From: Thermoanaerobaculia bacterium | GTDB taxonomy: Bacteria > Acidobacteriota > Thermoanaerobaculia > Gp7-AA8 | Assembly: GCA_046594105.1 (NCBI GenBank) | Contig: JBKJQB010000010.1 | Coordinates: 14,096-78,095 of the forward strand | DNA: 64,000 nt | Reading direction: 5' to 3' | Part shown: positions 5,070 to 51,981 of the stretch, piece after piece | Numbering within the stretch: position 1 is the stretch's first letter | How the letters are laid out: the number at the start of each line of letters is the position of its first letter | Made by a program: the position numbers and the translations under genes | The notes under the pieces: model-generated | Database searches by the model: none | What the model was told of the DNA's origin: nothing | What the model saw: only the letters and a program-made list of their open reading frames with translations

Positions 5070-5489
5070 TCAGCGCCACCCACCGAGGATCAGCCCGGCC
5101 AGAACCGCCGACACCAGGTTGTAGCCGGCATCGATCAGCCACAGTCGCGACGGCCTGCTCGAAAACAACGAGGTCGTGAGACTGGTGGACGCCTGGAATC
5201 CGAGCCAGCACAACGCGCCGATCATTGCGCCCTTCATCGCATCCATGTAGCTGTAGTGATGCAGCACCACGGCAAGAGCGAGGGCCACCAGCAGGCCGCC
5301 GACAAACGAAATCAGCATCAACACCGGCATGGGAAGAGGGTTCGCCGCTTTCAGCTCTTCCGGGGTTCGGCCCTGCAGTGCGATCCACCGTTTCGCGAAC
5401 ATCACCGGCGAGTACCACAGCCCGCCCAGAATGAAGAGGACGACGGCCGTTACCAGCACTGCGAGGTAATTCATCTGGGGAAGATTCAT
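5070..5489 (-). CDS. DUF1761-like small membrane protein
   Basis: 139 aa with 4 predicted TM helices (MNLPQMNYLAVLVTAVVLFILGGLWYSPVMF...). Confidence 0.5.
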   Translation of the reverse strand: MNLPQMNYLAVLVTAVVLFILGGLWYSPVMFAKRWIALQGRTPEELKAANPLPMPVLMLISFVGGLLVALALAVVLHHYSYMDAMKGAMIGALCWLGFQASTSLTTSLFSSRPSRLWLIDAGYNLVSAVLAGLILGGWR

Positions 5490-5625
5490 GGAAGCCTCCT
5501 CGGGATCGGTTCGAGACTCCATCGTACTCTTCACCGGAAACTCGCTTCGACCCCGGTTTTGAGAAAAGCGGTGATTGTGTACCGGGCGGCAGACGCGCGG
5601 AACGCTGCGGTACGATCGCGCAGTC

Positions 5626-6819
5626 ATGGAATTCGACGTCTTCTTCTCGATCAGCCAGACCGACGTTCGCGGATGGATTCCCAGCGAACGGGAGATGTTC
5701 GAGCATTTCTTCGAGCAGGTGGAGCTGGCCGACCGCCTCGGATTCGGCACCGCCTGGATCGCCGAGAGCCACCTGTCGAGCGAGGTGCAGAAGGGCAATC
5801 CGGGTGCGGTCATCCCGCATTTCGTCGGAGAGATCGGGCTGAACACCGACATCCTGCAGCTCGCCCATCGCATCTTCGCCAGAACCAAGCGCATCGGCGT
5901 CGGCTCAGCGATCCTCAACATTCTCTGTAACGGCGGACCGATCGCCGCGGCCGAACGGGTGAAGACGTTCCTCACCCTCCATGGCCTCAATCCAGCCGAG
6001 GAGCGTCTGCTGCACATCGGTTTCGCCTCGGGGCGCTTCCCGTTCATCAACATCCCTTACGGCATCGTTCCGAGGAATCCGGTGGAAGAGGCCGCGTGGC
6101 CGGTGGTGAAGAACAAGATCTTCGAAGAAGCCACGGAGATTTTCTTGCGGTTGCTCCGAGGTGAGACGCTCAGCTCCTCAGACATCCATTCGCAGACGCT
6201 TCGGCGCGAGGACTTTCGGAGCGATGCCGACTGGCAGCGCGTCGTCGACGCCGCTGGCCACACAGCAGTGTTGCCGCAAGGGATTCCGTTGGAACGGCGA
6301 TGGATCTTTCCCAATTTGAAAATTGTGCCGCAGGAGCCGCGCCTGGAGCTGCTGCGGTTGCTGATCGGATCGCACGATCCGCAGGTGCAGGGCTTCGCGA
6401 ACACGTGGATGCCGGTCGGCGTCTTCAATCTCTCGATCACGCCGGGCGGCGAGATCGAGAAAACGAACGCCTCGATGCAGACGGCCTATCACCCCAGCGG
6501 CGGCGGCTGGCATCGCCGCCTCATGCCGCGCACGGTGCTGGTGTTCATGAACGAAGATCCGGACAAGGCCGCGGCAGAAGCGCGCGAGGCGCTGGCGAAC
6601 TACTGGAACGCTCTGGAAGGGACTCTGGATGAGGAGAAAGTGCGCAAGGCCACCGACAACGCGCTGATCGGCGACGGCCCGGCAATCCTCGAGCAGATGA
6701 TGAAACGCTTCCACCCCGAAGACCGGCTGATGCTCTGGTTCGACTTCAACAACCACGACTCGCGGCGCGTGATGAAGAACATGGCCGATTTCATGGCCGC
6801 GGCGAAATCGCTGGCCTAG
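5626..6819 (+). CDS. LLM-class flavin-dependent oxidoreductase (luciferase-like monooxygenase family)
   Basis: N-terminal ...FGTAWIAESHLS... TIM-barrel signature of the bacterial luciferase-like family. 397 aa. Start at MEFDVFF. Confidence 0.7.
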   Translation: MEFDVFFSISQTDVRGWIPSEREMFEHFFEQVELADRLGFGTAWIAESHLSSEVQKGNPGAVIPHFVGEIGLNTDILQLAHRIFARTKRIGVGSAILNILCNGGPIAAAERVKTFLTLHGLNPAEERLLHIGFASGRFPFINIPYGIVPRNPVEEAAWPVVKNKIFEEATEIFLRLLRGETLSSSDIHSQTLRREDFRSDADWQRVVDAAGHTAVLPQGIPLERRWIFPNLKIVPQEPRLELLRLLIGSHDPQVQGFANTWMPVGVFNLSITPGGEIEKTNASMQTAYHPSGGGWHRRLMPRTVLVFMNEDPDKAAAEAREALANYWNALEGTLDEEKVRKATDNALIGDGPAILEQMMKRFHPEDRLMLWFDFNNHDSRRVMKNMADFMAAAKSLA

Positions 6820-12753: not shown

Positions 12754-12924
12754 CGATTGCTCCTCGCCATCCCGTCTGAGGGGGCGCAGACTAGCAAAAA
12801 CTGAGCGCGGCCAATCCGCCGACTTGCCAAAAGTACACGGAATAACTAATTGCCACCGACCGCTTTTATACGACAAATTCAAGTCACTCCAACCCAAAAT
12901 CCAACCATCGAGGTGGGCCTCCGA

Positions 12925-14700
12925 ATGAAACGAATCGCAGCTTTGCTGTTCCTTCTTGCGATCCCGACGATTGCCCACGCAGATGCGAATCCACGTCGCA
13001 TGATCGTGGTCACGCGCCATCCCTTCGCTCAGGCGGAGCGCGCACTGCGCGGAGCCCGTGGCGATGACTTCGACTTCGAGAACCGCGTTCGTTACAACGT
13101 CAAGGCGTTCACGATCATCAACGGCTTCGCGGCCGACCTGACTGCGGATGAGATCGCTCAGCTGAAGAAGTCCCCCGAGGTTTCGTATATCGAGCCGGTC
13201 ATCGAACGGTACAAGTTTGGGGTGTCATCACCACGACACACCGATGACTCCACCCGGGCCATGGAACTGGCCCCTTCAGCTCTCGCCGACTCGATCATTG
13301 CGGGGCAACAGACTGTGCCTTACGGCGTGACTCTGGTGGGTGCGCCGAACGTGTGGCCGGTCACCCGGGGAAAATCCCTCGACCCGAAGATCCCTACCCG
13401 CGTGGTGGTGGTGGACACCGGCGTCGACTACAACAACCCGGAGCTCAAGGCGATCTACAAGGGCGGCCTCAACGTCGTGGGCGGAAACAACAACCCTATC
13501 GACGATGACGGCCACGGGACGCACGTCGCCGGAACCATCGCCGCAGCCGACGACGGCGTGGGTGTGGTCGGGGTCGCGTCGCAAGTGGAACTCTATGCTG
13601 TCAAAGTACTCGACGAATGCGGAATCGGCTCGAACCTCGCGAGCATCGACGCACTCGATTGGATCACCAAGCAGAAGAAGGCCATCGGTGGAAACTGGAT
13701 CGCAAACTTTTCTCTGGGTTCCAATACCTCGTCCGGCAGCGAGCGGTCTGCTTTCCAGAAGGCCGCCGACGCCGGCGTGCTGATCTTTGCCGCCTCGGGC
13801 AACTCCTTTAAAGAAGAGACAGGGCTGGCTTTTCCTGCCGGCTACTCCGGCGTGATCTCGGTGGGCGCGATCGACAGCACCGGCAAGATCGCCTCGTTCT
13901 CACAGCGCGGCACGGGGCAGGGGATCGTCGCGCCCGGCGTCGGCGTCCTGTCGACCTTCGTGGAGGGTCAGGTCGCATCATCGGATGGACAGAAGGTTCT
14001 GGCTCGCTTCGCCCAGGCGTACAACGCCAAAGACTTTCCCGTATGCCTTCCCCGAGGGCCGATCAGCGGCACGTTCGTCTTCTCCGGAACGGGCAATCTT
14101 GCAGAGTTCCCCGCCGAGGTCTCCGGGAAAATCGCGCTGATCGAGCGCAGAGGAACTGACGCGGCCGGTCAAACCCTGACCTTCCTTACGAAAGCGAAGA
14201 ACGCGAAAAAAGCGGGAGCGATCGCGGCGGTGATCTACAGCCTTCCCGGACTCGACCTCGTGCGGCCCGGGTTCAGCCCTTTCGAGACGTCGGACATCAG
14301 CAGCGTGGTTCCCACGGCTCTCATTTCCGAAGCCGACGGCGCGCGTCTCAAAGCGCTGAGCGACAAGACCATCACCCTCGCCTTCGACGGCAGCGGCTAC
14401 TCCAGCACCTACGACTCCCTCTCCGGCACCTCGATGGCCTGCCCGCATGCGGTGGGCGTCGCTGCGCTGGTCTGGTCCGTCGTTCCGAACGCGAGCACGA
14501 TCACCATCGTCAACGCCATGGAGCAGTCGGCCAAGGACCTTGGCGTCTCCGGCTACGACACGGACTATGGCTTCGGCCTGATCAACGCGTTCGACGCGGC
14601 GAAGACGCTGAACCCCGCAGCCTTCAGCTCACCCATCCAGCCGCCCCCGGTCGAAGGGCCGGTGGTTGGACGCACGCCGGGGCGACGCGGCGGCCATTGA
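12925..14700 (+). CDS. S8 family serine peptidase (subtilase) with N-terminal I9 propeptide and inserted PA domain
   Basis: Signal peptide MKRIAALLFLLAIPTIAHA. Catalytic triad VVDTGVD (Asp) / HGTHVAG (His) / GTSMACPH (Ser). I9-like propeptide. Insertion between His and Ser resembles a PA domain. Confidence 0.85.
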   Translation: MKRIAALLFLLAIPTIAHADANPRRMIVVTRHPFAQAERALRGARGDDFDFENRVRYNVKAFTIINGFAADLTADEIAQLKKSPEVSYIEPVIERYKFGVSSPRHTDDSTRAMELAPSALADSIIAGQQTVPYGVTLVGAPNVWPVTRGKSLDPKIPTRVVVVDTGVDYNNPELKAIYKGGLNVVGGNNNPIDDDGHGTHVAGTIAAADDGVGVVGVASQVELYAVKVLDECGIGSNLASIDALDWITKQKKAIGGNWIANFSLGSNTSSGSERSAFQKAADAGVLIFAASGNSFKEETGLAFPAGYSGVISVGAIDSTGKIASFSQRGTGQGIVAPGVGVLSTFVEGQVASSDGQKVLARFAQAYNAKDFPVCLPRGPISGTFVFSGTGNLAEFPAEVSGKIALIERRGTDAAGQTLTFLTKAKNAKKAGAIAAVIYSLPGLDLVRPGFSPFETSDISSVVPTALISEADGARLKALSDKTITLAFDGSGYSSTYDSLSGTSMACPHAVGVAALVWSVVPNASTITIVNAMEQSAKDLGVSGYDTDYGFGLINAFDAAKTLNPAAFSSPIQPPPVEGPVVGRTPGRRGGH

Positions 14701-16213: not shown

Positions 16214-16351
16214 GGTGGGGAGAGGCGCAGCCGCCTCTCCTCGTCCGCCGCGCAGAAAGTCCCGGCGCATCCGGCTCTCGTTGGATTCCAGTTGCACATT
16301 TCAGGGCTGACGAGTAAAAGTCGTCGGTCCCAGGTCGCCGAAGAAGAGGAG

Positions 16352-19300
16352 ATGTTCATGCGCCGGTTCACGAAAGTCTTTGCCGTGAGCACCTTTCTGT
16401 TTGCCGGTTTCGCTTCGTCGGTCCACGCTCAGTCCGCGGACCTCCTCGTCTCGAAAAGCGGACCGGCCAGCGCGAATGCCGGGACCAACGTTCCCTACAG
16501 CGTCTCGGTGATGAATCTTGGACCCGACAACGCGACATCGATCACCCTCACCGATCCCATCCCGGCCGGCATGACCTTCGTTTCGGTCACCCAGAACGGT
16601 GGCCCCGCGTTCTCGTGCACCTTCCCAGCGGTCGGCGCCGGGGGCACGGTCAGCTGCACCGCGGGAACCCTGACCTCAGGCTCTACAGCAACTTTCACGT
16701 TCGTCTTTCAGATCTCCCTGATGACGCCTCCCGGCACCATTTTCACCAATACCGCTACCGTGATGACGGCGACCTTGGACCCCAACAGCGAGAACAACTC
16801 GAGCATCGCCTCCACCCAGACGCCGCCACCGCCCCAGAGTGATCTCTACGTCAGCAAGAGCGGACCGGCAAGCGCAGGTCCGAATACCAACGTGACCTAC
16901 CTGATCACCGCAGGGAACGCCGGTCCCGACACGGCGATGAGCGTATCCCTGCAGGACACGCTTCCCGGGAACATGACCTTCGTCTCCCTGACCCAGACTT
17001 CAGGGCCGGCGTTCATCTGTTCAAAACCAGCGGTCAACTCCGGAGGAACGGTCACCTGCACCATCGCGTCGCTCAACGCCGGCGTCAGCGCCTCGTTCAG
17101 CCTGGTCACCCAGGTTCCAACAGGCACCCCATCGGGTACCTCCTACGCGAACAACGCGAGCATCTCTTCCGCGACCGCGGACCCGAATGCGGAGAACCAA
17201 GTCTCCGGTAGCATCACCGTCGTCGTGGTGGCCGACGTTTCTGCTACCAAGACCGCGTCCCCGACGGCGACTGCTGGGGGAACGGTCACCTATGTCGTCA
17301 CGGCCACGAACGGCGGCCCTGATCAGGCGAACAATGTGGCTCTTCAGGATCCCCTGCCCGGTGGGGTGACCTTTGTGTCCGCAACCCAGAACAGCGGTCC
17401 GGCCGGAGGGTGCAGCACCAACACGACCGGCGGGACCACCACCGTCTTCTGCTCCATCAGCGCTCTGGCATCGGGTGCCAGCGCACAGTTCACAATCGTC
17501 GGGACCATTCCTTCGACTGCAACCGGCACGCTCAACAACACCGTGACCGTCTCCACCGACAGCTACGATTCGAATCTGGCCAACAACAGCGCCACTGCTT
17601 CCACAGCGGTCACCACATCCGCAGACCTCGCGGTCACCAAAAGCGCACCGGCAACCGCAGTCACCGGAGCGAACGTCACCTATACGATTTCCCTCACGAA
17701 CAACGGTCCCTCCTCCGCGAGCACGGTGTCGCTGAGCGATGTCCTCCCAGCCGCAACGACGTTCGTCTCCTCCACTCAGAACAGTGGGCCGGCCTTCACT
17801 TGCAGCACTCCCTCTCCCGGGGCCAGCGGCTCCATCACCTGCACCGCGGCGACCCTGGTGTCGGGAACGACAGCGACCTTCAGTTTCGTGGTCCAGATCG
17901 CCGCCTCCACGCCGGCGGGCAGCGTCATCAGCAACACCGCGAGTGTTTCCTCCTCCACTTCCGATCCAAACGCCGGAAACAACAGCGCTACCGCCTCGAC
18001 GACCACCAGCGTCTCTTCGGACGTCTCGGTAAACAAGACCAGCCCGGCCACCTCCGCGGCAGGATCCAACATCACCTACACCATCACGGTGACCAACGGC
18101 GGCCCATCCACCGCCACCACGTTGTCTCTCAGTGATCCACTGCCAGCGAACGTCACCTTCGTCTCGGAGTCGCAGACCAGCGGTCCGGCATTTGTCTGCG
18201 CGACACCAGGCATCGGTGCCACCGGGACGATCACCTGCACTGCCGCCACCCTCGCCCCCGGCGCATCGTCCGTGTTCAGCCTGGTGGTGAAGCTCGACCC
18301 AGCAGTCGCCAGCGGAACCACAACCTCGAATACGGCGGCCATCAGCTCAGGCAGTGCCGACTCCAATCCTGCCAACAACTCTTCGACCACAACGGTCACG
18401 GCCAGCCAGTCGGCCGATCTCTCGGTCTCGAAGACGGGATCGGCCACGGTGACTGCCGGCTCGAACATCACCTACAGCGTGTCCCTGACGAACAATGGTC
18501 CCTCGAACGCGGCCACGGTCTCGCTCAGCGACGCCATCCCCGCCAATACCACGTTTGTCTCCGCAGCGCCCACCAGTGGCCCCGTTTCCGGTCCAGCCTT
18601 CACCTGCACGTCGCCTGCGGTCGGCGGGACGGGCACGATCGTCTGCAGCGCCCCCTCGTTGATTGCCGGCGGCTCGGTCGTTTTCAGCATCGTCGTGAAG
18701 ACCTCACCGGGGGCCAACGGCACGGTCATCTCGAACACCGCTTCGGCGGCCTCAGCGACGCCGGACCCGGTCCCGGCAAACAACAGCTCGACGTTCGGCA
18801 CCTCTGCCGGCGCCGTGGCCGATCTTGCCATCGTCAAGACAGCGCCGGCCACAGCGATCGCCGGCAGCAACCTCACCTACTCCGTGACCTTGACCAATAA
18901 CGGCCCGTCCGATGCGGCAGGGGTCACCTTCACCGATGCAATCCCCGCGAACGCCACCTTCTTCTCCGAGGCGCAGACCAGCGGGCCGGCGTTCACCTGC
19001 ACACTCCCCGCAGCCGGCGGTTCCGGAACGATTTCGTGTACCTCGCCGATCCTGGCGACTGGAGCTTCTGCGATCTTCAGCATCGTCGTTCGCAGCAGTC
19101 CTGCAGCACCGAGCGGCACCGTGATCAGCAACACGGTGACCACTTCATCAGTCAGTACAGACTCCACTCCAGCGAACAACACCTCGACGGCGACGACCAC
19201 CGTGTCGACCTCCGCCGACCTCGGAATCACCAAGACCGGACCGGCGAGCGCCGGGGCTGGAAGTGACATTTCTTACGCGCTCACGCTCACGAACTTCGGC

Positions 19301-19693
19301 CCGTCCGACGCGGCGGCCGTGTCGCTGACGGACACCCTGCCGGCGAACGCAACCTTCGTTTCCGCAACCCAAACCGGCGGCCCTGCCTTCAGCTGCACCA
19401 CCCCCGCACCGGGCGGAACGGGATTGGTCCTGTGTACCGCCCCCTCGCTGTCCGCCAGCTCGGTGGCCACATTCAACGTGGTGATTCGTCTCCCCATCAA
19501 CACACCGGTCGGCACGGTCATCACCAACAGCGCATCGGTCTCCTCGACGACGGCCGACGCCAATCCGGCGAACAACACGGCGAGCATCTCCACCACCTCG
19601 TCCACAGCGATTCCAACCCTTTCGCCTCTCACACTGGTTCTTCTCGGACTCGGCCTGGCCGCCGTGGCCGCCGTGGTTCTGCGCGGGAACTGA
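16352..19693 (+). CDS. DUF11 (conserved repeat domain) tandem-repeat surface protein with C-terminal IPTL-CTERM sorting signal
   Basis: Signal peptide, then about 10 repeats of ~110 aa (DLxVSKSGPASA...NVTYxISxTNNGPS...TFVSxTQNSGPAFxC...GTITCT...DPNxxNNS). C-terminus TSSTAIPTLSPLTLVLLGLGLAAVAAVVLRGN has IPTLS, a TM helix and a basic end. Confidence 0.75.
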   Translation: MFMRRFTKVFAVSTFLFAGFASSVHAQSADLLVSKSGPASANAGTNVPYSVSVMNLGPDNATSITLTDPIPAGMTFVSVTQNGGPAFSCTFPAVGAGGTVSCTAGTLTSGSTATFTFVFQISLMTPPGTIFTNTATVMTATLDPNSENNSSIASTQTPPPPQSDLYVSKSGPASAGPNTNVTYLITAGNAGPDTAMSVSLQDTLPGNMTFVSLTQTSGPAFICSKPAVNSGGTVTCTIASLNAGVSASFSLVTQVPTGTPSGTSYANNASISSATADPNAENQVSGSITVVVVADVSATKTASPTATAGGTVTYVVTATNGGPDQANNVALQDPLPGGVTFVSATQNSGPAGGCSTNTTGGTTTVFCSISALASGASAQFTIVGTIPSTATGTLNNTVTVSTDSYDSNLANNSATASTAVTTSADLAVTKSAPATAVTGANVTYTISLTNNGPSSASTVSLSDVLPAATTFVSSTQNSGPAFTCSTPSPGASGSITCTAATLVSGTTATFSFVVQIAASTPAGSVISNTASVSSSTSDPNAGNNSATASTTTSVSSDVSVNKTSPATSAAGSNITYTITVTNGGPSTATTLSLSDPLPANVTFVSESQTSGPAFVCATPGIGATGTITCTAATLAPGASSVFSLVVKLDPAVASGTTTSNTAAISSGSADSNPANNSSTTTVTASQSADLSVSKTGSATVTAGSNITYSVSLTNNGPSNAATVSLSDAIPANTTFVSAAPTSGPVSGPAFTCTSPAVGGTGTIVCSAPSLIAGGSVVFSIVVKTSPGANGTVISNTASAASATPDPVPANNSSTFGTSAGAVADLAIVKTAPATAIAGSNLTYSVTLTNNGPSDAAGVTFTDAIPANATFFSEAQTSGPAFTCTLPAAGGSGTISCTSPILATGASAIFSIVVRSSPAAPSGTVISNTVTTSSVSTDSTPANNTSTATTTVSTSADLGITKTGPASAGAGSDISYALTLTNFGPSDAAAVSLTDTLPANATFVSATQTGGPAFSCTTPAPGGTGLVLCTAPSLSASSVATFNVVIRLPINTPVGTVITNSASVSSTTADANPANNTASISTTSSTAIPTLSPLTLVLLGLGLAAVAAVVLRGN

Positions 19694-19726
19694 CGCGCAG
19701 AACCATAGACTGATCGTGGGCAACGA

Positions 19727-20737
19727 ATGACCATCATCCGAGTCACCGTCCTGAGCGGAGATGCCATCCGTCAGGGAGGCGTAGAGCTAATCGATGGATG
19801 GAGCTCCGACGGCGCGGAGAAGTTGTGGGTCGATATCCAGGAGCCGACGGAGGCCGATCTCGAAGCGCTCCTGGAAAAGCGTTTCGGCTTCCACGAGCTG
19901 GCGGCGGAAGACAGCATGTCCACCACCACCCTGCCGAAATACGACCGCTTCAAGAACTACGACTTCTTCATCTTCCGCGCGGTCGACGTCAATCTCAACG
20001 ACCACGGTTCGCAGACGTACAAGCTGGCTGCGTTTCTCGCAGCCAATTTTCTCTTCACGGTTCACCGCGAGCCGATGCTCGCAGTCGACGACGTGACGAA
20101 ACGACTTCCGGCCGACCGGCGGATTCTTGGCAACGGAACGGATTTTCTGCTCTACGCCATCGTGGACCAGATGGTGGATGCGCATTTTCCTCTGCTGGAG
20201 CGAATCGAAGAGTGCGTCGACACACTGCAGGAAACCATTTTCCAGTCCGCCAGGCCCGAGCATCTCGATGAGTTGCTCCACCTCAAGCGCGACATCAACG
20301 TCCTCCGACGCCAATCGATGCCCCAGCGCGAGCTGCTCAATCAGCTCTCACGCGGCGATGCGCAGTTCATCGCCAGCGATCACCTCATCTATTTTCGAGA
20401 CCTGTACGACCACATGTTCCGGATCAGCGAAACCATCGATGTGGAGCGCGACATGATGGCCGGCACCATGGAGGCCTACCTCTCCGTGGTGGCCAACCGG
20501 ACCAACGAGATCATGAAGGTGCTGACCGTCTTCTCCGCGATTATGCTGCCGCTGACGCTCATCGCCGGCGTCTACGGGATGAACTTCGCCCTCCTTCCCG
20601 AGTTGCACTGGCGCTTTGGATACTGGTACGCCCTTGGCCTGATGGCCACCACGGCCAGCTTCATGCTCTTCTGGTTCTGGCGGCGCGGATGGATTGGACA
20701 GGGCACCTCAGAATCGACGTTTCGGAAACGCCCCTGA
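19727..20737 (+). CDS. corA: Magnesium/cobalt transporter CorA
   Basis: C-terminal YGMNF signature followed by 2 TM helices. Cytoplasmic N-domain ~250 aa. Confidence 0.85.
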   Translation: MTIIRVTVLSGDAIRQGGVELIDGWSSDGAEKLWVDIQEPTEADLEALLEKRFGFHELAAEDSMSTTTLPKYDRFKNYDFFIFRAVDVNLNDHGSQTYKLAAFLAANFLFTVHREPMLAVDDVTKRLPADRRILGNGTDFLLYAIVDQMVDAHFPLLERIEECVDTLQETIFQSARPEHLDELLHLKRDINVLRRQSMPQRELLNQLSRGDAQFIASDHLIYFRDLYDHMFRISETIDVERDMMAGTMEAYLSVVANRTNEIMKVLTVFSAIMLPLTLIAGVYGMNFALLPELHWRFGYWYALGLMATTASFMLFWFWRRGWIGQGTSESTFRKRP

Positions 20738-21197: not shown

Positions 21198-22430
21198 ATG
21201 CCGGTCTCTCTCGCGCAGATCGTCGATGTCGCGCTGGCCAACAATCCGTCGACCCGGATCGCCTGGCTGCAGGCGCGCGCGGCGCAGGAGGAGGTGGGCA
21301 GCCGGCGCGCGGCGTGGCTGCCCGAAGTCGACCTCAACGGATCGCTGGTCCGTTCACGATCTGCTGCGCAGCCCGGCCGCCCGAGCACCACCCAGACCAC
21401 CTTCGGTCCGTCGGTCGCCCTCAGTCTGCTGCTGTTCGATTTCGGTGGCCGGACCGCTCAGGTCGACGAGGCGCGTGCGGCGTTGATCTCGGCGAATCTT
21501 CTTCACAATCAGAGCATCCAGGACGTCCTCCTTCGTGCGGAAACCGCGTACTACCGCGTGCTCGATGGCATCGCCCTTCTGGCCGCTCAGGATTCCACCA
21601 TCAAGGAACGCCAGGCGTTTCTCGATGCGGCGGAAGCGCGGCACCGCGCCGGTGTCTCCACCATCGCCGACGTTCTGCAGGCGCGGACCGCGCTCTCCCA
21701 GGCGATGCTTGCTCGGGAGACGATCGAAGGGAATCTGCGAACCGCCGAGGGCCAGCTGGCTGCGGCGATGGGCCTATCGCCTGCTGTCCGCTTCGAGCTC
21801 GGAAGTCTGCCGCTGGAAGTCCCGGCCCTTGAGATCGAAAGCGCAGTGGAAGAACTCCTTGGGAACGCCGCGGTCAAGCGTCCCAACCTCAATGCGGCGC
21901 GGGCCGACGTCATGGCCGCCGAGGCCCGCTTGAAGGAAGTGCGCGCGCAAGGCCTGCCCTCCGTCAGTCTTTCCACTTCCGCCGGTCGTGTGTCCACTGG
22001 TGGCTCCGCCTCCGGCAGTCTGGGATATTCAGCCGGTGTCTTCGTTCGCTGGCCAATTTTCAGCGGCTTCCGGAACACCTACGACCTTCGTCAGGCTCAA
22101 CTCCGTGTGGAAGCACAACGCGAGAATGCGCGGCGTGTGGAACAGGATGTGAGTCTCGAGGTGTGGACCAGCTATCACGCTCTGCAGACCGCGTCCCAGC
22201 GGCTGGTCACGGTGCGCGACCTGCTCAAAAGCGCGCAGGAATCCGTGGATGTCGCCTCGGGACGGTATCGCGCCGGCGTGGGAAGCGTGATCGACCTGCT
22301 CACTGCGGAGGCCGCACTGGAAACTGCTCGCGCTGAGGAAGTCCGGGCGCGGACCGACTGGTTTCTCTCCCTGGCCCGGCTTGCTCACGACACCGGGACA
22401 CTCACTCCCGATACCATCCAAGGAAAATGA
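21198..22430 (+). CDS. TolC-like outer-membrane efflux protein (OEP family)
   Basis: Two repeats of the OEP coiled-coil/beta-barrel architecture. Mature N-terminus is ...IVDVALANNPS. An in-frame upstream extension (from ~20945) encodes a lipoprotein-type signal RSSRPWPIFLALAALACGC but has no ATG/GTG/TTG. Confidence 0.7.
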   Translation: MPVSLAQIVDVALANNPSTRIAWLQARAAQEEVGSRRAAWLPEVDLNGSLVRSRSAAQPGRPSTTQTTFGPSVALSLLLFDFGGRTAQVDEARAALISANLLHNQSIQDVLLRAETAYYRVLDGIALLAAQDSTIKERQAFLDAAEARHRAGVSTIADVLQARTALSQAMLARETIEGNLRTAEGQLAAAMGLSPAVRFELGSLPLEVPALEIESAVEELLGNAAVKRPNLNAARADVMAAEARLKEVRAQGLPSVSLSTSAGRVSTGGSASGSLGYSAGVFVRWPIFSGFRNTYDLRQAQLRVEAQRENARRVEQDVSLEVWTSYHALQTASQRLVTVRDLLKSAQESVDVASGRYRAGVGSVIDLLTAEAALETARAEEVRARTDWFLSLARLAHDTGTLTPDTIQGK

Positions 22431-23596
22431 ACGCGATGAGATTCATCGGTCCGCTGATTTCCGAGCCCAGCCCGTCCTCGGAATCGAATCCCAGGTTCCC
22501 TGCCCGACACTCGTTCCTGCTGATGGGAGCCGCCCTGGGGAGCCTGATCCTATCGGCCTGCGACAAGCCGAAGCCCAAGCCGCCAGAGGAACGCGTTCCG
22601 GTGACGGTGGCGGTGGCCCAGATGCGGGACGTCCCCCTGCAGATCCGGGTGATCGGCAGCGTGCAGGCCATCTCTACGGTGGCCGTGCGAGCACAGGTTG
22701 GTGGCCAGCTGACCCAGGTTCACTTCCGCGAAGGGCAGGATGTCCGCAGGGGACAGCCGCTGTTCACCATCGATTCGCGCCCGTACCGATCGGCGCTGGC
22801 CGCAGCAGAGGCGAATCTTGCACGCGATCAGGCGCAGTTGCGGAACGCCGAATCGGAAGCCTCCCGTTACGCGGGACTGGTCAAGAAGGACTACGTCACG
22901 CGGGAGGAGTACGAAAAGATCACCACCGGCGCTGAAGCCGCGCGGGCCGTGGTGGCGGCCGATCGGGCAGCCATTGAAAACGCCCGTCTGCAACTCTCCT
23001 ACTCCGACATCCGATCGCCCATCGACGGACGCACCGGCAGCCTGCAGCTTCAGGCTGGAAACCTCGTTCGCGCCAACGACGCCAATCCCCTGGTCACCAT
23101 CCTCCAGATCGCTCCCGTCTACGTCGACTTCGCGGTGCCGGAATCGCAGCTCGGCGACCTTCGCTCGCGAGGCCTGGGGAACGTACCGGTGACCGCCTCT
23201 CCGCAGGGGAGCGGAAAGGTGGTCGATGGCGGTCACCTGACCTTCGTCGACAACGCCGTCGACACGGCCACCGGCACCATTCATGTGAAAGCGACGTTCC
23301 CCAATCAGGATCGCTCTCTGTGGCCTGGTCAGTTTGTGAATGTAGCCATGACTCTGTCCAGTCGCGCAAACGCGGTGCTCATCCCCTCGCAGGCTGTGCA
23401 GTCGGGTCAGAAGGGACAATATGTTTACGTCGTCATGGAGGGCGGAAGCGTCGAGATGCGTTCCGTCTCTGTGTTTCGCGCCGTCGATCAGGAGTCGATC
23501 ATCGATCACGGGGTGTCGGCCGGCGAACGCGTGGTCACGGACGGCCAGTTACGCCTTTCGCCGAAGAGCAAAGTCGACATCAAGGGCGGGGCGTGA
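22427..23596 (+). CDS. RND efflux periplasmic adaptor (membrane fusion protein, HlyD/AcrA family)
   Basis: ATGA start/stop overlap with the upstream OEP gene. Lipobox LILSAC. Biotinyl-like barrel, coiled-coil hairpin and beta-barrel domain order. Confidence 0.85.
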   Translation: MNAMRFIGPLISEPSPSSESNPRFPARHSFLLMGAALGSLILSACDKPKPKPPEERVPVTVAVAQMRDVPLQIRVIGSVQAISTVAVRAQVGGQLTQVHFREGQDVRRGQPLFTIDSRPYRSALAAAEANLARDQAQLRNAESEASRYAGLVKKDYVTREEYEKITTGAEAARAVVAADRAAIENARLQLSYSDIRSPIDGRTGSLQLQAGNLVRANDANPLVTILQIAPVYVDFAVPESQLGDLRSRGLGNVPVTASPQGSGKVVDGGHLTFVDNAVDTATGTIHVKATFPNQDRSLWPGQFVNVAMTLSSRANAVLIPSQAVQSGQKGQYVYVVMEGGSVEMRSVSVFRAVDQESIIDHGVSAGERVVTDGQLRLSPKSKVDIKGGA

Positions 23597-23687
23597 GCGG
23601 GGCGCAGCAAACAGCAGCGACCTTTGAAGCGAGGTTTCCCCGCGCAGAAGACTCCACGCCGTGCCACTGCATCCTGAGGGCGGCGTC

Positions 23688-26600
23688 ATGAACATCTCCG
23701 CGTTCTTCATCAAACGCCCGGTCATGACCACGCTGGTGATGCTGGCCATCATCGTCTTCGGCGTGATGGCATATCACCAGCTGCCGGTGAGCGATCTGCC
23801 CAATGTCGACTTCCCGACCATTCAGGTCTCGGCCTCGCTGCCCGGCGCCAGTCCGGAGACGATGGCGGCATCGGTGGCCACTCCGCTGGAGCGGCAGTTC
23901 TCGACCATCGCCGGGCTGGACTCCATGAACTCCGCCTCCGCGCTGGGGACGACCTCCATCACCCTGCAGTTCAATCTCTCCCGGGACCTCGATGCCGCTG
24001 CCCAGGACGTGCAGGCCGCCATCGCAGCCGCTGCCAGGCAGCTGCCGCCGAACATGCCCTCGCCTCCTTCCTACAACAAGGTCAATCCCGCGGACTCGCC
24101 GGTGATTTACCTTGCCCTGACCTCGGACACGCTACCGCTCTACCAGCTCGACGAGTACGCCGAAACGATGATGGCGCAGCGGATCTCCACCATCCAGGGC
24201 GTCGCTCAGGTGCAGGTGTACGGTGCGCAGAAATACGCGGTGCGGGTGCAGCTCGATCCGCGCGAGATCGCCACCCGTGGCATCGGGATCGATGAGGTTG
24301 CCGCCGCACTGCGCAGCAGCAACGTCAACCTGCCCACCGGCGTGCTCAATGGTCCCTACACTGCGTATACCGTTCAGGCCAACGGTCAGCTTTTCCGGGC
24401 CGAGGACTACCGGCGCATCACGGTGGCCTATCGCAACGGCGCACCGGTCCATCTCGGAGAGCTGGGCCGCGTGCTCGACGACGTGGAGAACGACCAGACC
24501 GCCGCCTGGTTCCGCGACAAACGCGGCTTCGTGCTTGCGGTGCAGAAGCAGCCCGGCACCAACGCGGTCGAGGTCTCCGACCGCGTGCGAGCGCTTCTGC
24601 CGACCTTCCGCAGGGAGTTGCCGGCGTCGGTCCACCTGGACATTCACCGCGACCGCGCCGAGTCCATCCGAGCCTCGGTGGGAGACGTGAAGTTCACACT
24701 CGTCCTGACGCTCTTCCTGGTGATCCTGGTGATCTTCCTCTTCCTTCGGAACGTCTCCGCCACGGTGATTCCCAGCCTGGCCCTGCCACTGTCAATCGTG
24801 GCCACCTTCGGGGTGATGTACCTATTCGATTACTCGCTCGACAACCTCTCGCTGATGGCACTGACACTCTCGGTAGGCTTCGTGGTCGACGACGCCATCG
24901 TCATGCTCGAGAACATCGTTCGGCACATGGAGATGGGCGAGCCACCTCTGACTGCGGCATTGAACGGGTCGAAGGAAATCGGATTCACCATCATCTCCAT
25001 GACCATCTCCCTCGCCGCGGTGTTCATCCCCATCCTGTTCATGGGCGGGATTCTGGGGCGGCTGTTTCACGAGTTTGCGGTAACCATCGGCGCCGCGATT
25101 CTGGTTTCCGGCTTCGTCTCGCTTTCGCTCACACCGCTGCTGGCGGCGAAGTTTCTGCGCCCACCCGGGAAGGAGCAGCACGGACGCCTCTACCAGAGCA
25201 CCGAGCGATTCTTCGACTGGATGCTGCACAGCTACGAGCGCGGCCTGAAGACGGCCCTGCGCTTCCGCGCCCTGACCATGCTGATCTCCGCGATCATCCT
25301 GGCGGCGACCGTGTGGTTGTTCACGGCCGTACCCAAAGGCTTCATTCCGAACGAGGATGCCAGCGAGGTGCGCATCAGCCTGGAAGCCGCGCAGGGGATC
25401 TCCTTCCCCGATCTGGTGCGCCATCAGCTGCAGGCCATGGCCATCGTCATCCGGGACCCGAACGTGGCCACGTTCTTCTCCTTTGCCGGAGGCCGCGGCG
25501 GCGCGTCCAATACGGGCCTCATCTCGCTGCGTCTGGTGCCGAGATCGAAGCGCGTCTCCATCGATCAGGTGATCGCCGGACTACGGCCGAAGCTCAACGC
25601 CATTCCTGGACTGAGGGTCACCCTGCAGAACCCGCCGCCCATCCGGCTGGGCGGCCGGCAAGCCAATTCGCAATATCAGTACACGCTGCAATCGTCCGAC
25701 ACTGCAGCGCTGTATCCCGCCGGTCAGGAGATGCTCGACAGGATGCGCAAGCTCCCCGGCTTCGAGGACGTCAGTACCGATCTGCTGCTGCGCAACCCCA
25801 CCGTCGGAGTGAACATCGATCGCGACCGGATCGCCGCTCTGGGGTTGAACATGCAGCAGGTCCAGGACGCCCTGTTCTCTGCGTACGGCACTCGCCAGAT
25901 CTCCACCATCTACGCGCCCACCAACGCGTACGCGGTCATCATGGAGCTCGATCCGAAATACCAGACCGGTCCGCAGGCCCTGTCCATGCTCTACGTCCGC
26001 GCGCCCTCTGGCGAGATGATCCCGCTGTCCACTCTGGCGAAGTTCGTCCCCACCTACGGACCCACCTCGGTCAACCACTCCGGGCAGCTGCCGTCGGTGA
26101 CCATCTCCTTCAACCTCAAGCCCGGAGTGTCCCTCGGCGAGGCCGTGGACGCCGTCAACAAGACCGCAAAGGCGACGCTCCCGTCTTCCGTCACCACGGC
26201 GTTCCAGGGCACCGCTCAGGCCTTCCAGTCCTCACTCCAGGGACTGGGACTGCTGCTGCTCATCGCCATCGCGGTCATCTACCTGGTCCTGGGCATCCTC
26301 TACGAAAGCTTCATCCATCCGCTGACCATTCTCTCGGCGCTGCCCTTTGCGGGATTCGGGGCGTTGCTCACGCTGATGATCTTCCGCGTCGATCTCTCGA
26401 TCTACGCCTTCGTCGGAATCATCATGCTGGTGGGGCTGGTCAAGAAAAACGGGATCATGATGGTCGACTTCGCCATCGAAGCCGAGAAGAACGGCGCGTC
26501 GCCGGAACAGGCGATTTACGAAGCCTGCGTGGTGCGCTTCCGTCCGATCATGATGACCACCATGGCCGCTCTCATGGGCACCCTGCCGATCGCCGTGGGG

Positions 26601-26810
26601 TTTGGCGCTGGCGCGGAATCGCGCCGACCCCTGGGCCTCGCCGTCGTCGGGGGCCTGCTGTTCTCACAGACTCTCACCCTGTACGTCACGCCGGTTTTCT
26701 ACCTGTACATGGACAAGCTGCACCGGAAGCCGGACGGAAACTCGATCGGCGGGCCCGGCTCCTTGAACGATCTCGAGCTGCTCGCGGAGCCTGAACCGGT
26801 CGAGGTTTGA
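23688..26810 (+). CDS. RND multidrug efflux permease (AcrB/HAE1 family)
   Basis: MNISAFFIKRPVMTTLVMLAIIVFGVMAY... N-terminus. 12-TM topology with two large periplasmic loops. 1040 aa. Confidence 0.9.
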   Translation: MNISAFFIKRPVMTTLVMLAIIVFGVMAYHQLPVSDLPNVDFPTIQVSASLPGASPETMAASVATPLERQFSTIAGLDSMNSASALGTTSITLQFNLSRDLDAAAQDVQAAIAAAARQLPPNMPSPPSYNKVNPADSPVIYLALTSDTLPLYQLDEYAETMMAQRISTIQGVAQVQVYGAQKYAVRVQLDPREIATRGIGIDEVAAALRSSNVNLPTGVLNGPYTAYTVQANGQLFRAEDYRRITVAYRNGAPVHLGELGRVLDDVENDQTAAWFRDKRGFVLAVQKQPGTNAVEVSDRVRALLPTFRRELPASVHLDIHRDRAESIRASVGDVKFTLVLTLFLVILVIFLFLRNVSATVIPSLALPLSIVATFGVMYLFDYSLDNLSLMALTLSVGFVVDDAIVMLENIVRHMEMGEPPLTAALNGSKEIGFTIISMTISLAAVFIPILFMGGILGRLFHEFAVTIGAAILVSGFVSLSLTPLLAAKFLRPPGKEQHGRLYQSTERFFDWMLHSYERGLKTALRFRALTMLISAIILAATVWLFTAVPKGFIPNEDASEVRISLEAAQGISFPDLVRHQLQAMAIVIRDPNVATFFSFAGGRGGASNTGLISLRLVPRSKRVSIDQVIAGLRPKLNAIPGLRVTLQNPPPIRLGGRQANSQYQYTLQSSDTAALYPAGQEMLDRMRKLPGFEDVSTDLLLRNPTVGVNIDRDRIAALGLNMQQVQDALFSAYGTRQISTIYAPTNAYAVIMELDPKYQTGPQALSMLYVRAPSGEMIPLSTLAKFVPTYGPTSVNHSGQLPSVTISFNLKPGVSLGEAVDAVNKTAKATLPSSVTTAFQGTAQAFQSSLQGLGLLLLIAIAVIYLVLGILYESFIHPLTILSALPFAGFGALLTLMIFRVDLSIYAFVGIIMLVGLVKKNGIMMVDFAIEAEKNGASPEQAIYEACVVRFRPIMMTTMAALMGTLPIAVGFGAGAESRRPLGLAVVGGLLFSQTLTLYVTPVFYLYMDKLHRKPDGNSIGGPGSLNDLELLAEPEPVEV

Positions 26811-50522: not shown

Positions 50523-51412
50523 CCGGCAGTTCCTGGCGACAGCGCTTTCTGGTTCGCGGTGTCTTCTGGCGTCAGGGTCTGCGCTGGGGCATTCTCAACA
50601 TCCCGGTCTGGCTCGAACCGGCTGTCATCGCCTGGTGGTCGGCCTTCTTTCTGCTCTGGGGCCCGGGACGCCGAGGGGTCATGAGCAATCTTTCGGCAAT
50701 CAAACCGGGGTCGCTCGCCGTGAGCAACTTCTTCCGCTGCTACCGAGTCTTCTGGAACTACGCATGGACCATCTCCGACAACATCCGCCTCAAGGAACTG
50801 CGCGTGATCCCCGATTGGGAGTTTGAAGGATGGGAGCACTTTCAGGAGATGCAGTCCAGCACCGGCGCCATCCTCCTGACCGCCCACATGGGGAGCTACG
50901 ACCTCGGCGCGCAGCTGTTTTCCGAGATGTCCGCCCGGAATATCGTCATGGTACGCGCCCCGGAAATCGATCCAGAAACTCGGGCCTTCGAGGCGCAGCA
51001 GAGTGCTCGGGGAGTGCGGGTGGAGCTCAACACACAAGCTGGAGCGCTGGCCCTCGATCTCCTGGAAACGGTACGGGCCGGCGGCATCATCGCCATTCAG
51101 GGTGACCGCGTGACACCAGGCATCGGCTTTCTCCAGGCCCAGCTGTTCGGGAAATCTGCACCGATTCCAGCAGGACCGTTCGCTCTGGCCATGTCGGGAC
51201 GTGTCCCCATCTACCCGATTTTCGTCGTCCGCACCGGCCGCAGCCGCTATCGGCTCATCACCCGGCCACCGATCGAGGTTGTGCGCACACGGGATCGTGA
51301 CCAGGACTTTGCGCGCGCTGCCGAAAAATGGACGGTGGAACTTGAGGATCTCATCCGGAGGAGCTGGTTCCAATGGTTCCAGTTCGAACCATTTTCTGTG
51401 GAGCTGCGGTAG
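50519..51412 (+). CDS. Lysophospholipid/lipid-A-type acyltransferase (LPLAT, HtrB/LpxL/PatA-like)
   Basis: ATGA overlap with the upstream gene. N-terminal TM. HX4D acyltransferase motif LTAHMGSYDLG. ~297 aa. Confidence 0.6.
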   Translation: MTGSSWRQRFLVRGVFWRQGLRWGILNIPVWLEPAVIAWWSAFFLLWGPGRRGVMSNLSAIKPGSLAVSNFFRCYRVFWNYAWTISDNIRLKELRVIPDWEFEGWEHFQEMQSSTGAILLTAHMGSYDLGAQLFSEMSARNIVMVRAPEIDPETRAFEAQQSARGVRVELNTQAGALALDLLETVRAGGIIAIQGDRVTPGIGFLQAQLFGKSAPIPAGPFALAMSGRVPIYPIFVVRTGRSRYRLITRPPIEVVRTRDRDQDFARAAEKWTVELEDLIRRSWFQWFQFEPFSVELR

Positions 51413-51981
51413 TGAAAGTGATTCGCGACCAGCCCTACGCGCGATGGTTTCCTTCGCGAAGGCGTTTCGCACTGACGAAGATTCTTGCGTTCGCCTTACT
51501 CAGGACGCTCAGTTCCAACGGAGCGCCGGCACCATCCGATACGGCCGGAGGAAAGCGCATCGTCCTGGGCCTCGATCGTGATCACGACTCGTTCGAGATC
51601 TACTCGGCGGCCAGCCTTCACTTCGTGGTCCTCACCTGTTTCATGGCCTCCTTCATCCCGCTGCCCCCTCCACTCTCGATCCTGCTGGCGGCATTTTTTG
51701 AGCCTCTGCTCGCGCTGCTCCTCTGTTTTGCCGGCGCGCTGGTCATGTCCCGCTGGACCGCCCTCCGAGGTCGCAGCAGGGTGGGCTTCGCGCCTGGGAA
51801 CTCCGTCGTTCTCATGGCGCTGGCAATCGCGGCTTCGTTCTATCTCCTGTGGCGGAACGGATGGGCCGCGCCGGTCGGTGGATTGTTTTTGACGATCGTC
51901 ATCATTAACGCGATCGCTTCGATCGCCGTGCGCTTCCTGCAGCCCACGATCGCCAGATTGGAGGAACGGTGCGTCGCCTGA
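51412..51981 (+). CDS. Hypothetical polytopic membrane protein (~4 TM)
   Basis: GTG start overlapping the upstream TAG by 1 nt. Four hydrophobic helices. No recognisable family. Confidence 0.4.
   Translation: MKVIRDQPYARWFPSRRRFALTKILAFALLRTLSSNGAPAPSDTAGGKRIVLGLDRDHDSFEIYSAASLHFVVLTCFMASFIPLPPPLSILLAAFFEPLLALLLCFAGALVMSRWTALRGRSRVGFAPGNSVVLMALAIAASFYLLWRNGWAAPVGGLFLTIVIINAIASIAVRFLQPTIARLEERCVA

Follow-up and report, generated by a model that had tools for sequence, protein, structure and literature searches.

We describe a gene for a large secreted protein in a 64,000-nucleotide stretch of DNA from a Thermoanaerobaculia bacterium of the phylum Acidobacteriota (hereafter the window; contig JBKJQB010000010.1). 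Its product consists of eight tandem DUF11 repeats, a family renamed CLIPPER in 2025 (PMC12617251), and ends in a short tail of the IPTL-CTERM type. We propose that it is probably a Sec-exported, all-stalk envelope protein of eight CLIPPER domains whose last 27 residues form an exosortase-type, IPTL-CTERM-class sorting signal, read by an exosortase H (XrtH) encoded elsewhere in the genome. The protein belongs to a known kind, CLIPPER-repeat envelope proteins with an IPTL-type exosortase signal, and is not an entry to an orphan system. The first-pass annotation of this DNA had regarded the sorting system as unassigned and its enzyme as not identified, and had offered the gene as a handle for finding that enzyme. 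This part of its account was not borne out: curated libraries already pair IPTL-CTERM tails with exosortase H, and we recover the same pairing from metagenome contigs. Exosortase H being assigned already, the DUF11 gene gives no special handle on enzyme discovery.

The C-terminus of the protein agrees exactly with the sequence quoted in the first-pass annotation, AIPTLSPLTLVLLGLGLAAVAAVVLRGN, and is the only tail of such design among all open reading frames (ORFs) in the window. It reads IPTLSPLT, with SPLT where IPTLxxWG has xxWG, and its motif-to-end length is 27 residues, against a median of 31 in 120 canonical tails. The isolated 40-residue tail scores 21.2 bits with the curated IPTL-CTERM model TIGR04174, whose cut-off is 20.5. 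It also matches NF033207, the 'midcut-by-XrtH protein' family, with 26.2 bits against a cut-off of 45 and over profile positions 27-62 (the signal) only; this match provided exosortase H as a lead. We rejected membership of the midcut family itself, as the score is below the cut-off and the tail is terminal, whereas about 110 further residues follow the midcut signal.

The same design, IP[TAMS][LI]S followed by a helix and a basic end, is shared by 110 of the 120 top-scoring homologues, so the helix did not arise here by chance. The first-pass annotation had named a plain transmembrane (TM) anchor, with IPTLS absent from orthologs, as the finding that would speak against its reading; we find the motif kept in the closest ortholog (P0002, 71% identical, ending AIPALSLITLALLGLGLAAVAIVALRGQ, AIPALSLITL...) and in 109 other homologues. 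The commonest forms are IPTLS (25), IPMIS (20) and IPALS (14). In homologue tails the Pro never varies and conservation at the Leu position is 90% or more; at the position of WG most DUF11 homologues also carry SPL or SPF. The other 10 homologues are without the tail; several of them start inside a repeat, have no signal peptide and look truncated. When reduced to 74 non-redundant homologue tails, 41 match TIGR04174 at E<=5e-4 (best 7.8e-11) and 32 match NF033207 over its signal part, while homologues with IPT[LV]SEW[MG] pass Pfam PF18203 at 27.9-32.8 bits. NCBI names one homologue (P0069) 'IPTL-CTERM sorting domain-containing protein' and several tail-bearing ones Thermoanaerobaculia bacterium, with tails from IPTLSEWM to IPTLSPLAM. 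Judged by its sequence, the window tail is a weak, WG-less IPTL-CTERM variant, borderline in itself, whose homologues grade into the canonical form. The earlier description of a tripartite IPTL-CTERM-type signal on a secreted multi-repeat DUF11 protein is upheld in motif and helix, and by homologues that pass the curated models.

Tolerance at the WG positions is suggested by a single contig (L133) that bears a canonical tail together with a W-less one (VPTLGQVAL...). In other phyla the DUF11 passenger ends differently: in LPXTG in Actinobacteria (P0105, L026, L077), and in ...GWVYLKK, with no IPTL-type tail, in Flavobacterium, an end that we take to be a C-terminal domain of the type IX secretion system. 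Because one passenger carries such different ends, its C-terminus appears to be an exchangeable anchor module. A scan of GTDB representatives with the whole protein returned a best match of 49% identity, and few of the 80 loci it found have IPTL-type tails. A metagenome scan for [AGD]IPTLSPL[AT]L gave 15 pattern matches, none of them confirmed. One Thermoanaerobaculia homologue with an IPTLSPLAM tail (P0092, L214:1-22511) lies in a cluster of the exopolysaccharide (EPS)/O-antigen type, in an arrangement kept on three contigs; the cluster holds Wzy_C, a Wzx-like flippase, several family 4 glycosyltransferases, a sulfotransferase, Bac_transf, DegT and an Asn synthase.

The enzyme of the canonical class is named in the curated libraries: NCBIfam TIGR04177 is 'exosortase H', which JGI calls 'exosortase H (IPTLxxWG-CTERM-specific)' and NCBI 'exosortase H'. 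Metagenome contigs scanned for DNA encoding IPTLSEWG gave 120 loci (666 kb in total, mean 5.5 kb). In these, 120 of the 123 IPTLxEWG occurrences lie within 45 residues of the ORF C-terminus, each with a helix and an R/K cluster after it, and the passengers measure 62-1480 residues. Ten of the 120 loci encode a small XrtH homologue with five TM helices, about one per 67 kb, and all seven homologues tested exceed the TIGR04177 cut-off of 86 bits (87.6-176.8 bits). The family, which comprises 849 clusters at 50% identity (E<=1e-30, representative search), has C116, N154, R157 and H176 invariant and carries the motif GCN[AG]...LNxxR[VI]; the exosortase motif CSG...NxxR gave no matches. Organisms named among the XrtH matches are Zixibacteria, Verrucomicrobiota and Candidatus Methylomirabilis. 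At four of six distinct xrtH loci a tail-bearing gene lies within two genes of xrtH, with the tails IPTVSEWG (L205), IPTTSEWG (L208), TPTLSQWG (L210) and, about 1 kb from the XrtH gene in a Methylomirabilis metagenome-assembled genome, VPTLSEWG (L219). The IPTL-CTERM/XrtH pairing is thus reproduced for the canonical class from raw metagenome contigs, and the assignment is computational. The Methylomirabilis locus fits the predicted IPTL-CTERM tail of the S-layer protein mela_00855 of M. lanthanidiphila, placed in the outermost layer by experiment (PMC8671808). On plasmids of Acidovorax and Diaphorobacter, IPTL-CTERM/choice-of-anchor-U proteins occur with no exosortase within 20 kb.

The xrtH loci held further recurrent features. 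A gene of 229-257 codons either overlaps xrtH at its 3' end or comes straight after it (L205:10602-11291, L207:3419-4114, L208:4563-5255, L210:10696-11469). The L205 and L210 copies, the two scanned, match no NCBIfam family, and no Pfam match is on record for any copy; the gene appears to be a conserved partner, as yet without a name, that accompanies exosortase H in planctomycete- or verrucomicrobia-like contigs. At the Methylomirabilis-type loci (L209, L219) the gene downstream of xrtH instead encodes about 205 residues with a SEC-C motif. In L101:1222-3591 (- strand) and L119:3-344 (+ strand) the IPTLSEWG helix is not terminal and is followed by a two-helix module of about 75 residues (...AYLxHLLYL...), and a similar 76-residue module is a separate gene between target and xrtH at L210:9606-9836 (+ strand). 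This module is probably what NF033207 describes, with the L119 copy reaching only 19.8 bits. One 6.3-kb contig carries two xrtH paralogs in tandem (L143:3865-4590 and 5418-6059, - strand), each exceeding the cut-off of TIGR04177, and next to them a single IPTLSEWG-tailed gene.

The body of the window protein is made of CLIPPER repeats throughout. Pfam DUF11 (PF01345) and NCBIfam TIGR01451 each match eight stretches (E=1.7e-176, 576.6 bits and E=3.9e-88, 289 bits), and D-L-x-x-x-K anchors recur at residues 30, 164, 295, 425, 557, 689, 824 and 956. The first-pass annotation had the family right; its count of about ten repeats of ~110 residues gives way to eight of ~132 residues, with a period of 130-135. 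Protein identity between pairs of repeats is 41-61%, and Tandem Repeats Finder detects no tandem repeat at the DNA level in the gene, the copies being too diverged. Three residues separate repeat 1 from the predicted cleavage site of the signal peptide, which we placed from the n/h/c-region pattern in the sequence. Apart from DUF11, Pfam matches are all to Ig-like repeat families that overlap the DUF11 repeats, and none is to an adhesive head domain. Since no head stands beside the repeats, we regard the protein as a head-less rod and not a classical adhesin.

Structural comparison suggests how this rod may be built. The repeat profile has as its best PDB sequence match the CLIPPER crystal structure 9ifr_A, a weak one (E=0.051). 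In all eight repeats K6, D39, N104 and the Cys pair C60/C73 are invariant. In the alignment to 9ifr_A, K6 pairs with the Lys of DVVKT, by our count residue 715, the isopeptide Lys (PMC12617251); D39 pairs with the Asp of LNDTL, counted as 749 and one off the published catalytic Asp-748, and the Asn falls outside the alignment. An AlphaFold2 model of repeat 1 (predicted local distance difference test 93.1, predicted template modelling score 0.84) has nine strands and resembles 9IFR by Foldseek (E=9e-7, template modelling scores 0.71/0.77, 20% identity in the structural alignment), as well as integrin calf domains and Gram-positive isopeptide pilins. As modelled, repeat 1 has a CnaA-like immunoglobulin beta-sandwich fold. 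The CLIPPER isopeptide bond has been demonstrated and is stabilising: with it, the unfolding temperature rises from ~45 to ~80 degrees C and the domain is protected from proteinase K, and in Acidobacteriota 79% of isopeptide-bonded CLIPPER domains also have disulfides (PMC12617251). Each repeat of the window protein has the Lys/Asp/Asn set that makes this bond in the crystallised CLIPPER domain, and the product is predicted to be a covalently stiffened, protease-resistant rod about eight domains long.

We favour a pathway in which the protein would be exported by Sec, lose its signal peptide and fold in the periplasm, each repeat acquiring an isopeptide bond and a disulfide, while the C-terminal helix would hold it in the inner membrane. 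An XrtH-type enzyme with five TM helices and a Cys/Arg/His active site would then cut at or just after the IPTL motif and hand the protein to an acceptor, leading to final display on the cell surface or within the matrix. Sortases and archaeosortase A are the model for such cleavage with hand-over, and it is by analogy with them that we infer cleavage, transfer and surface location here, together with acceptance of the WG-less variant by the organism's own XrtH.

Several points weigh against this proposal. In the context of the full protein TIGR04174 scores 14.5 bits, below its cut-off of 20.5, and PF18203 has no match at E<=1; the isolated tail gives 12.4 bits with PF18203 (cut-off 20.8) and 14.5 bits with Pfam PEP-CTERM (PF07589, cut-off 20.7, helix only), so that the IPTL-CTERM model does no better than that of another class. 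The WG of IPTLxxWG is absent, and the tail has a single Arg, whereas 96% of the 120 canonical tails have at least two R/K. No xrtH was found in the ~182 kb around WG-less DUF11 genes, window included, where about 2.7 would be expected at the canonical density (probability of none ~0.07); the 182-kb and 666-kb sets are differently sampled contigs and not comparable, which makes the deficit suggestive and not significant. No Acidobacteriota-named XrtH appears among the few organism names in the 240 matches listed. Our literature search turned up no experimental work that addresses XrtH or the cleavage of an IPTL tail, and the proposed mechanism offers no explanation of the route by which the processed protein crosses the outer membrane.

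For the window itself, the earlier report of no sorting enzyme holds. Family scans found no exosortase, rhombosortase or CPBP-type enzyme, and a local XrtH profile run against all window ORFs of at least 50 residues gave no match. The four polytopic membrane ORFs are MgtC, a GT-C/PMT_2-like protein, a resistance-nodulation-division (RND) pump and an orphan with five TM helices, none of them a sorting enzyme. The orphan (51373-51981, + strand) has 202 residues and no Pfam or NCBIfam family, and sits in a glycosyltransferase/acyltransferase/polysaccharide-deacetylase cluster (~46.2-57.6 kb). As its size and topology fit XrtH, a protein of about 170-250 residues with five TM helices and conserved Cys/Asn/Arg/His, we considered it as a hidden XrtH and rejected it at an hhalign probability of 0.07%. 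Beyond the window, xrtH is absent within 10 kb of the WG-less DUF11 genes in L001, L002, L006, L007, L035, L214 and L217. No other exosortase (PF09721) was seen next to WG-less DUF11 genes, including the surroundings of the Thermoanaerobaculia homologues P0092 and P0033, nor at the 80 GTDB loci of the whole-protein scan.

These observations leave some room for a tentative alternative, unlikely in our judgement, in which the WG-less IP(T/A/M)(L/I)SPL tail common in Acidobacteriota DUF11 proteins is a sub-class read not by XrtH as TIGR04177 defines it but by another member of the exosortase family, such as an Xrt of the PEP-CTERM type, or by an enzyme not described so far. It would account for the equally weak Pfam scores of the tail as PEP-CTERM and as IPTL-CTERM, for the missing WG and the lone Arg, for the absence of xrtH in ~182 kb when canonical tails have it at 10 loci in 666 kb, and for the lack of Acidobacteriota names among the XrtH matches listed. 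It would also suit P0092, since EPS/O-antigen-type clusters are the usual setting of PEP-CTERM/XrtA exosortase systems. The IPTLS motif of the window tail is nevertheless exact, and close-homologue tails grade continuously into IPT[LV]SEW[GM] forms, which with 27.9-32.8 bits clear both curated models. WG-less genes have no other exosortase beside them either, and the statistic on absence is weak and drawn from differently sampled contigs. Because ~182 kb held no exosortase while canonical tails have an xrtH every ~67 kb, it could also be proposed that the IP(T/A/M)(L/I)SP(L/F) tails of the window protein and most of its Acidobacteriota DUF11 relatives are a distinct signal class with its own, not-yet-described exosortase-type enzyme, which we consider doubtful.

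We think it quite improbable that the C-terminal helix is a permanent, uncleaved inner-membrane anchor and IPTLS a conserved juxtamembrane segment with no enzyme. The sub-threshold scores of the full-length protein, the lack of a sorting enzyme in the window or near its relatives, and a literature search that found no experimental cleavage of any IPTL tail would all be expected of such an anchor. An anchor, however, has no need of an invariant Pro and of IP-x-L-S at a fixed C-terminal distance in 110 of 120 homologues, and the motif class stands C-terminally on unrelated passengers (120 of 123 occurrences), near xrtH far above chance. Gram-positive relatives, moreover, carry LPXTG, a cleaved signal, on the same passenger. 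That IPTLS precedes the helix by chance in this one protein, as a five-residue motif with a borderline curated hidden Markov model score might allow, is refuted by its retention in the ortholog and 109 other homologues and by the uniqueness of the tail among window ORFs, and we give it almost no credence.

The protein can be compared with several known systems. To the IPTL-CTERM/XrtH system (TIGR04174 with TIGR04177; PF18203 with PF09721) it is tied by a terminal tripartite tail on a signal-peptide protein, an exact IPTLS, the same helix length, and homologues that pass the curated models, one being a member named by NCBI. It differs in the features of the tail weighed above (SPLT for xxWG, one basic residue, sub-cut-off scores in the full protein and with Pfam) and in coming from Acidobacteriota, outside the lineages of the named XrtH matches (Zixibacteria, Verrucomicrobiota, Methylomirabilis). 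The S-layer protein mela_00855 likewise comes from a non-proteobacterial diderm and has both a signal peptide and a predicted IPTL-CTERM tail, but has 312 residues, an unrelated passenger with no DUF11, and a tail called by InterProScan, presumably above threshold (PMC8671808). The CLIPPER adhesin B9T28_05395 of Acinetobacter silvestris (PDB 9IFR; PMC12617251) shares tandem CLIPPER domains, the Lys/Asp/Asn set, Cys pairs and a Gram-negative host; that fibrillar adhesin has N-terminal adhesive domains and an OmpA-like anchor, whereas the window protein is head-less with an exosortase-type tail, and the two are only distantly similar in sequence, with E=0.051 and 20% identity when aligned by structure.

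Two other sorting systems are comparable in design. PEP-CTERM/exosortase A (EpsH) has a Pro-containing motif, a helix and a basic end, an enzyme of the same superfamily, and often an EPS locus like that of P0092; the window motif is IPTL and not PEP, and its PEP-CTERM score is below the cut-off (14.5 vs 20.7 bits). The LPXTG/sortase DUF11 proteins of Actinobacteria have this repeat passenger too, and where the window protein has its tail they bear a C-terminal signal that is cleaved; they differ in motif, in enzyme family and in acceptor, which is peptidoglycan in monoderms.

Table 1. Features of the CLIPPER-repeat gene and its adjoining elements, in window coordinates.
Feature	Position	Strand	Basis or remark
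Coding sequence, preferred start	16358..19693	+	ORF list; TGA stop 19691-19693; alternative ATG 16352 in frame, adds Met-Phe
Shine-Dalgarno-like GAGGAG	16346..16351	+	sequence inspection; 6 nt ahead of ATG 16358, abuts 16352
N-terminal signal peptide MFMRRFTKVFAVSTFLFAGFASSVHA (aa 1-26)	16352..16429	+	predicted signal peptidase I site after VHA, then QSA; no lipobox Cys
CLIPPER/DUF11 repeat 1 (aa 30-163)	16439..16840	+	repeat alignment; AlphaFold2 model
CLIPPER/DUF11 repeat 2 (aa 164-294)	16841..17233	+	repeat alignment
CLIPPER/DUF11 repeat 3 (aa 295-424)	17234..17623	+	repeat alignment
CLIPPER/DUF11 repeat 4 (aa 425-556)	17624..18019	+	repeat alignment
CLIPPER/DUF11 repeat 5 (aa 557-688)	18020..18415	+	repeat alignment
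CLIPPER/DUF11 repeat 6 (aa 689-823)	18416..18820	+	repeat alignment
CLIPPER/DUF11 repeat 7 (aa 824-955)	18821..19216	+	repeat alignment
CLIPPER/DUF11 repeat 8 (aa 956-1085)	19217..19606	+	repeat alignment
Signature motif IPTLS (aa 1087-1091)	19610..19624	+	sequence; P invariant, L at least 90% in homologue tails
Hydrophobic helix PLTLVLLGLGLAAVAAVVL (aa 1092-1110), 19 residues	19625..19681	+	ends 3 residues ahead of stop
Short cytoplasmic end RGN, single basic residue	19682..19690	+	sequence
corA (Mg2+/Co2+ channel)	19727..20737	+	Pfam CorA E=8.9e-77; 33 nt past DUF11-gene stop

The first-pass annotation had placed the gene at 16352-19693. A single ORF on the + strand with its end at 19693 is confirmed; the ATG at 16358 is, however, the more likely start, given the spacing of the GAGGAG element and the start of a 1111-residue NCBI product (P0001) that is 100% identical to the window protein and begins MRRFTK at 16358. 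GC content at codon positions 1/2/3 is 0.49/0.65/0.79, matching other window genes. Four antisense ORFs, each of 130-164 residues, run in a chain across the gene (18076-19767, - strand), a consequence of how rich in Thr/Ser/Ala the coding-strand repeats are; a simple gene picker based on GC3 minus GC2 (GC at the third and second codon positions) favoured these over the real DUF11 gene.

As reported earlier, corA follows the gene directly. The gap between them holds no terminator-like site, and corA is possibly co-transcribed. It stands at equal distance downstream at the locus of the closest ortholog (L001) and is missing from the other homologue loci examined (L002, L214, L217). With adjacency confined to the closest ortholog, we rejected corA as a functional partner of the sorting tail and regard it as local synteny outside the sorting system.

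Other neighbours of the gene are recorded here for completeness. Just past the stop of the alanine dehydrogenase gene (ald), a GC-rich inverted repeat, GGGGAGAGGCG cagc CGCCTCTCC (16214-16240, + strand, with no T-run), may be a transcript-end or stability hairpin between ald and the DUF11 gene. A secreted subtilase of the S8 family, which has an I9 propeptide and a PA domain (12850-14700, + strand), is encoded two genes upstream of the DUF11 gene, and we found no link between it and the sorting tail. Downstream of corA, 21198-26810 (+ strand) holds an outer-membrane factor of the OEP family and then two ORFs; the library scan covered the OEP protein only, and we read the two ORFs, from their order, size and many TM segments, as an efflux operon's membrane-fusion protein and RND pump. 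A second large envelope protein, of 1323 residues, is encoded at 58674-62645 (- strand); it has a hydrophobic segment at its N-terminus and at least 4-5 PKD domains, and no IPTL-type tail.

The value of these findings is mostly corrective, in that an apparently orphan sorting system already has exosortase H in curated annotation. Because both curated models under-call this variant of the tail, many Thermoanaerobaculia-type proteins are labelled only 'DUF11' or 'hypothetical'. The all-CLIPPER rod, with its simple tail, would lend itself well to an experimental test of the XrtH assignment. More broadly, head-less, isopeptide-stiffened stalk proteins of this kind, which may serve as a sheath, a matrix or an S-layer-like component, appear to be abundant in the envelope of soil Acidobacteriota.

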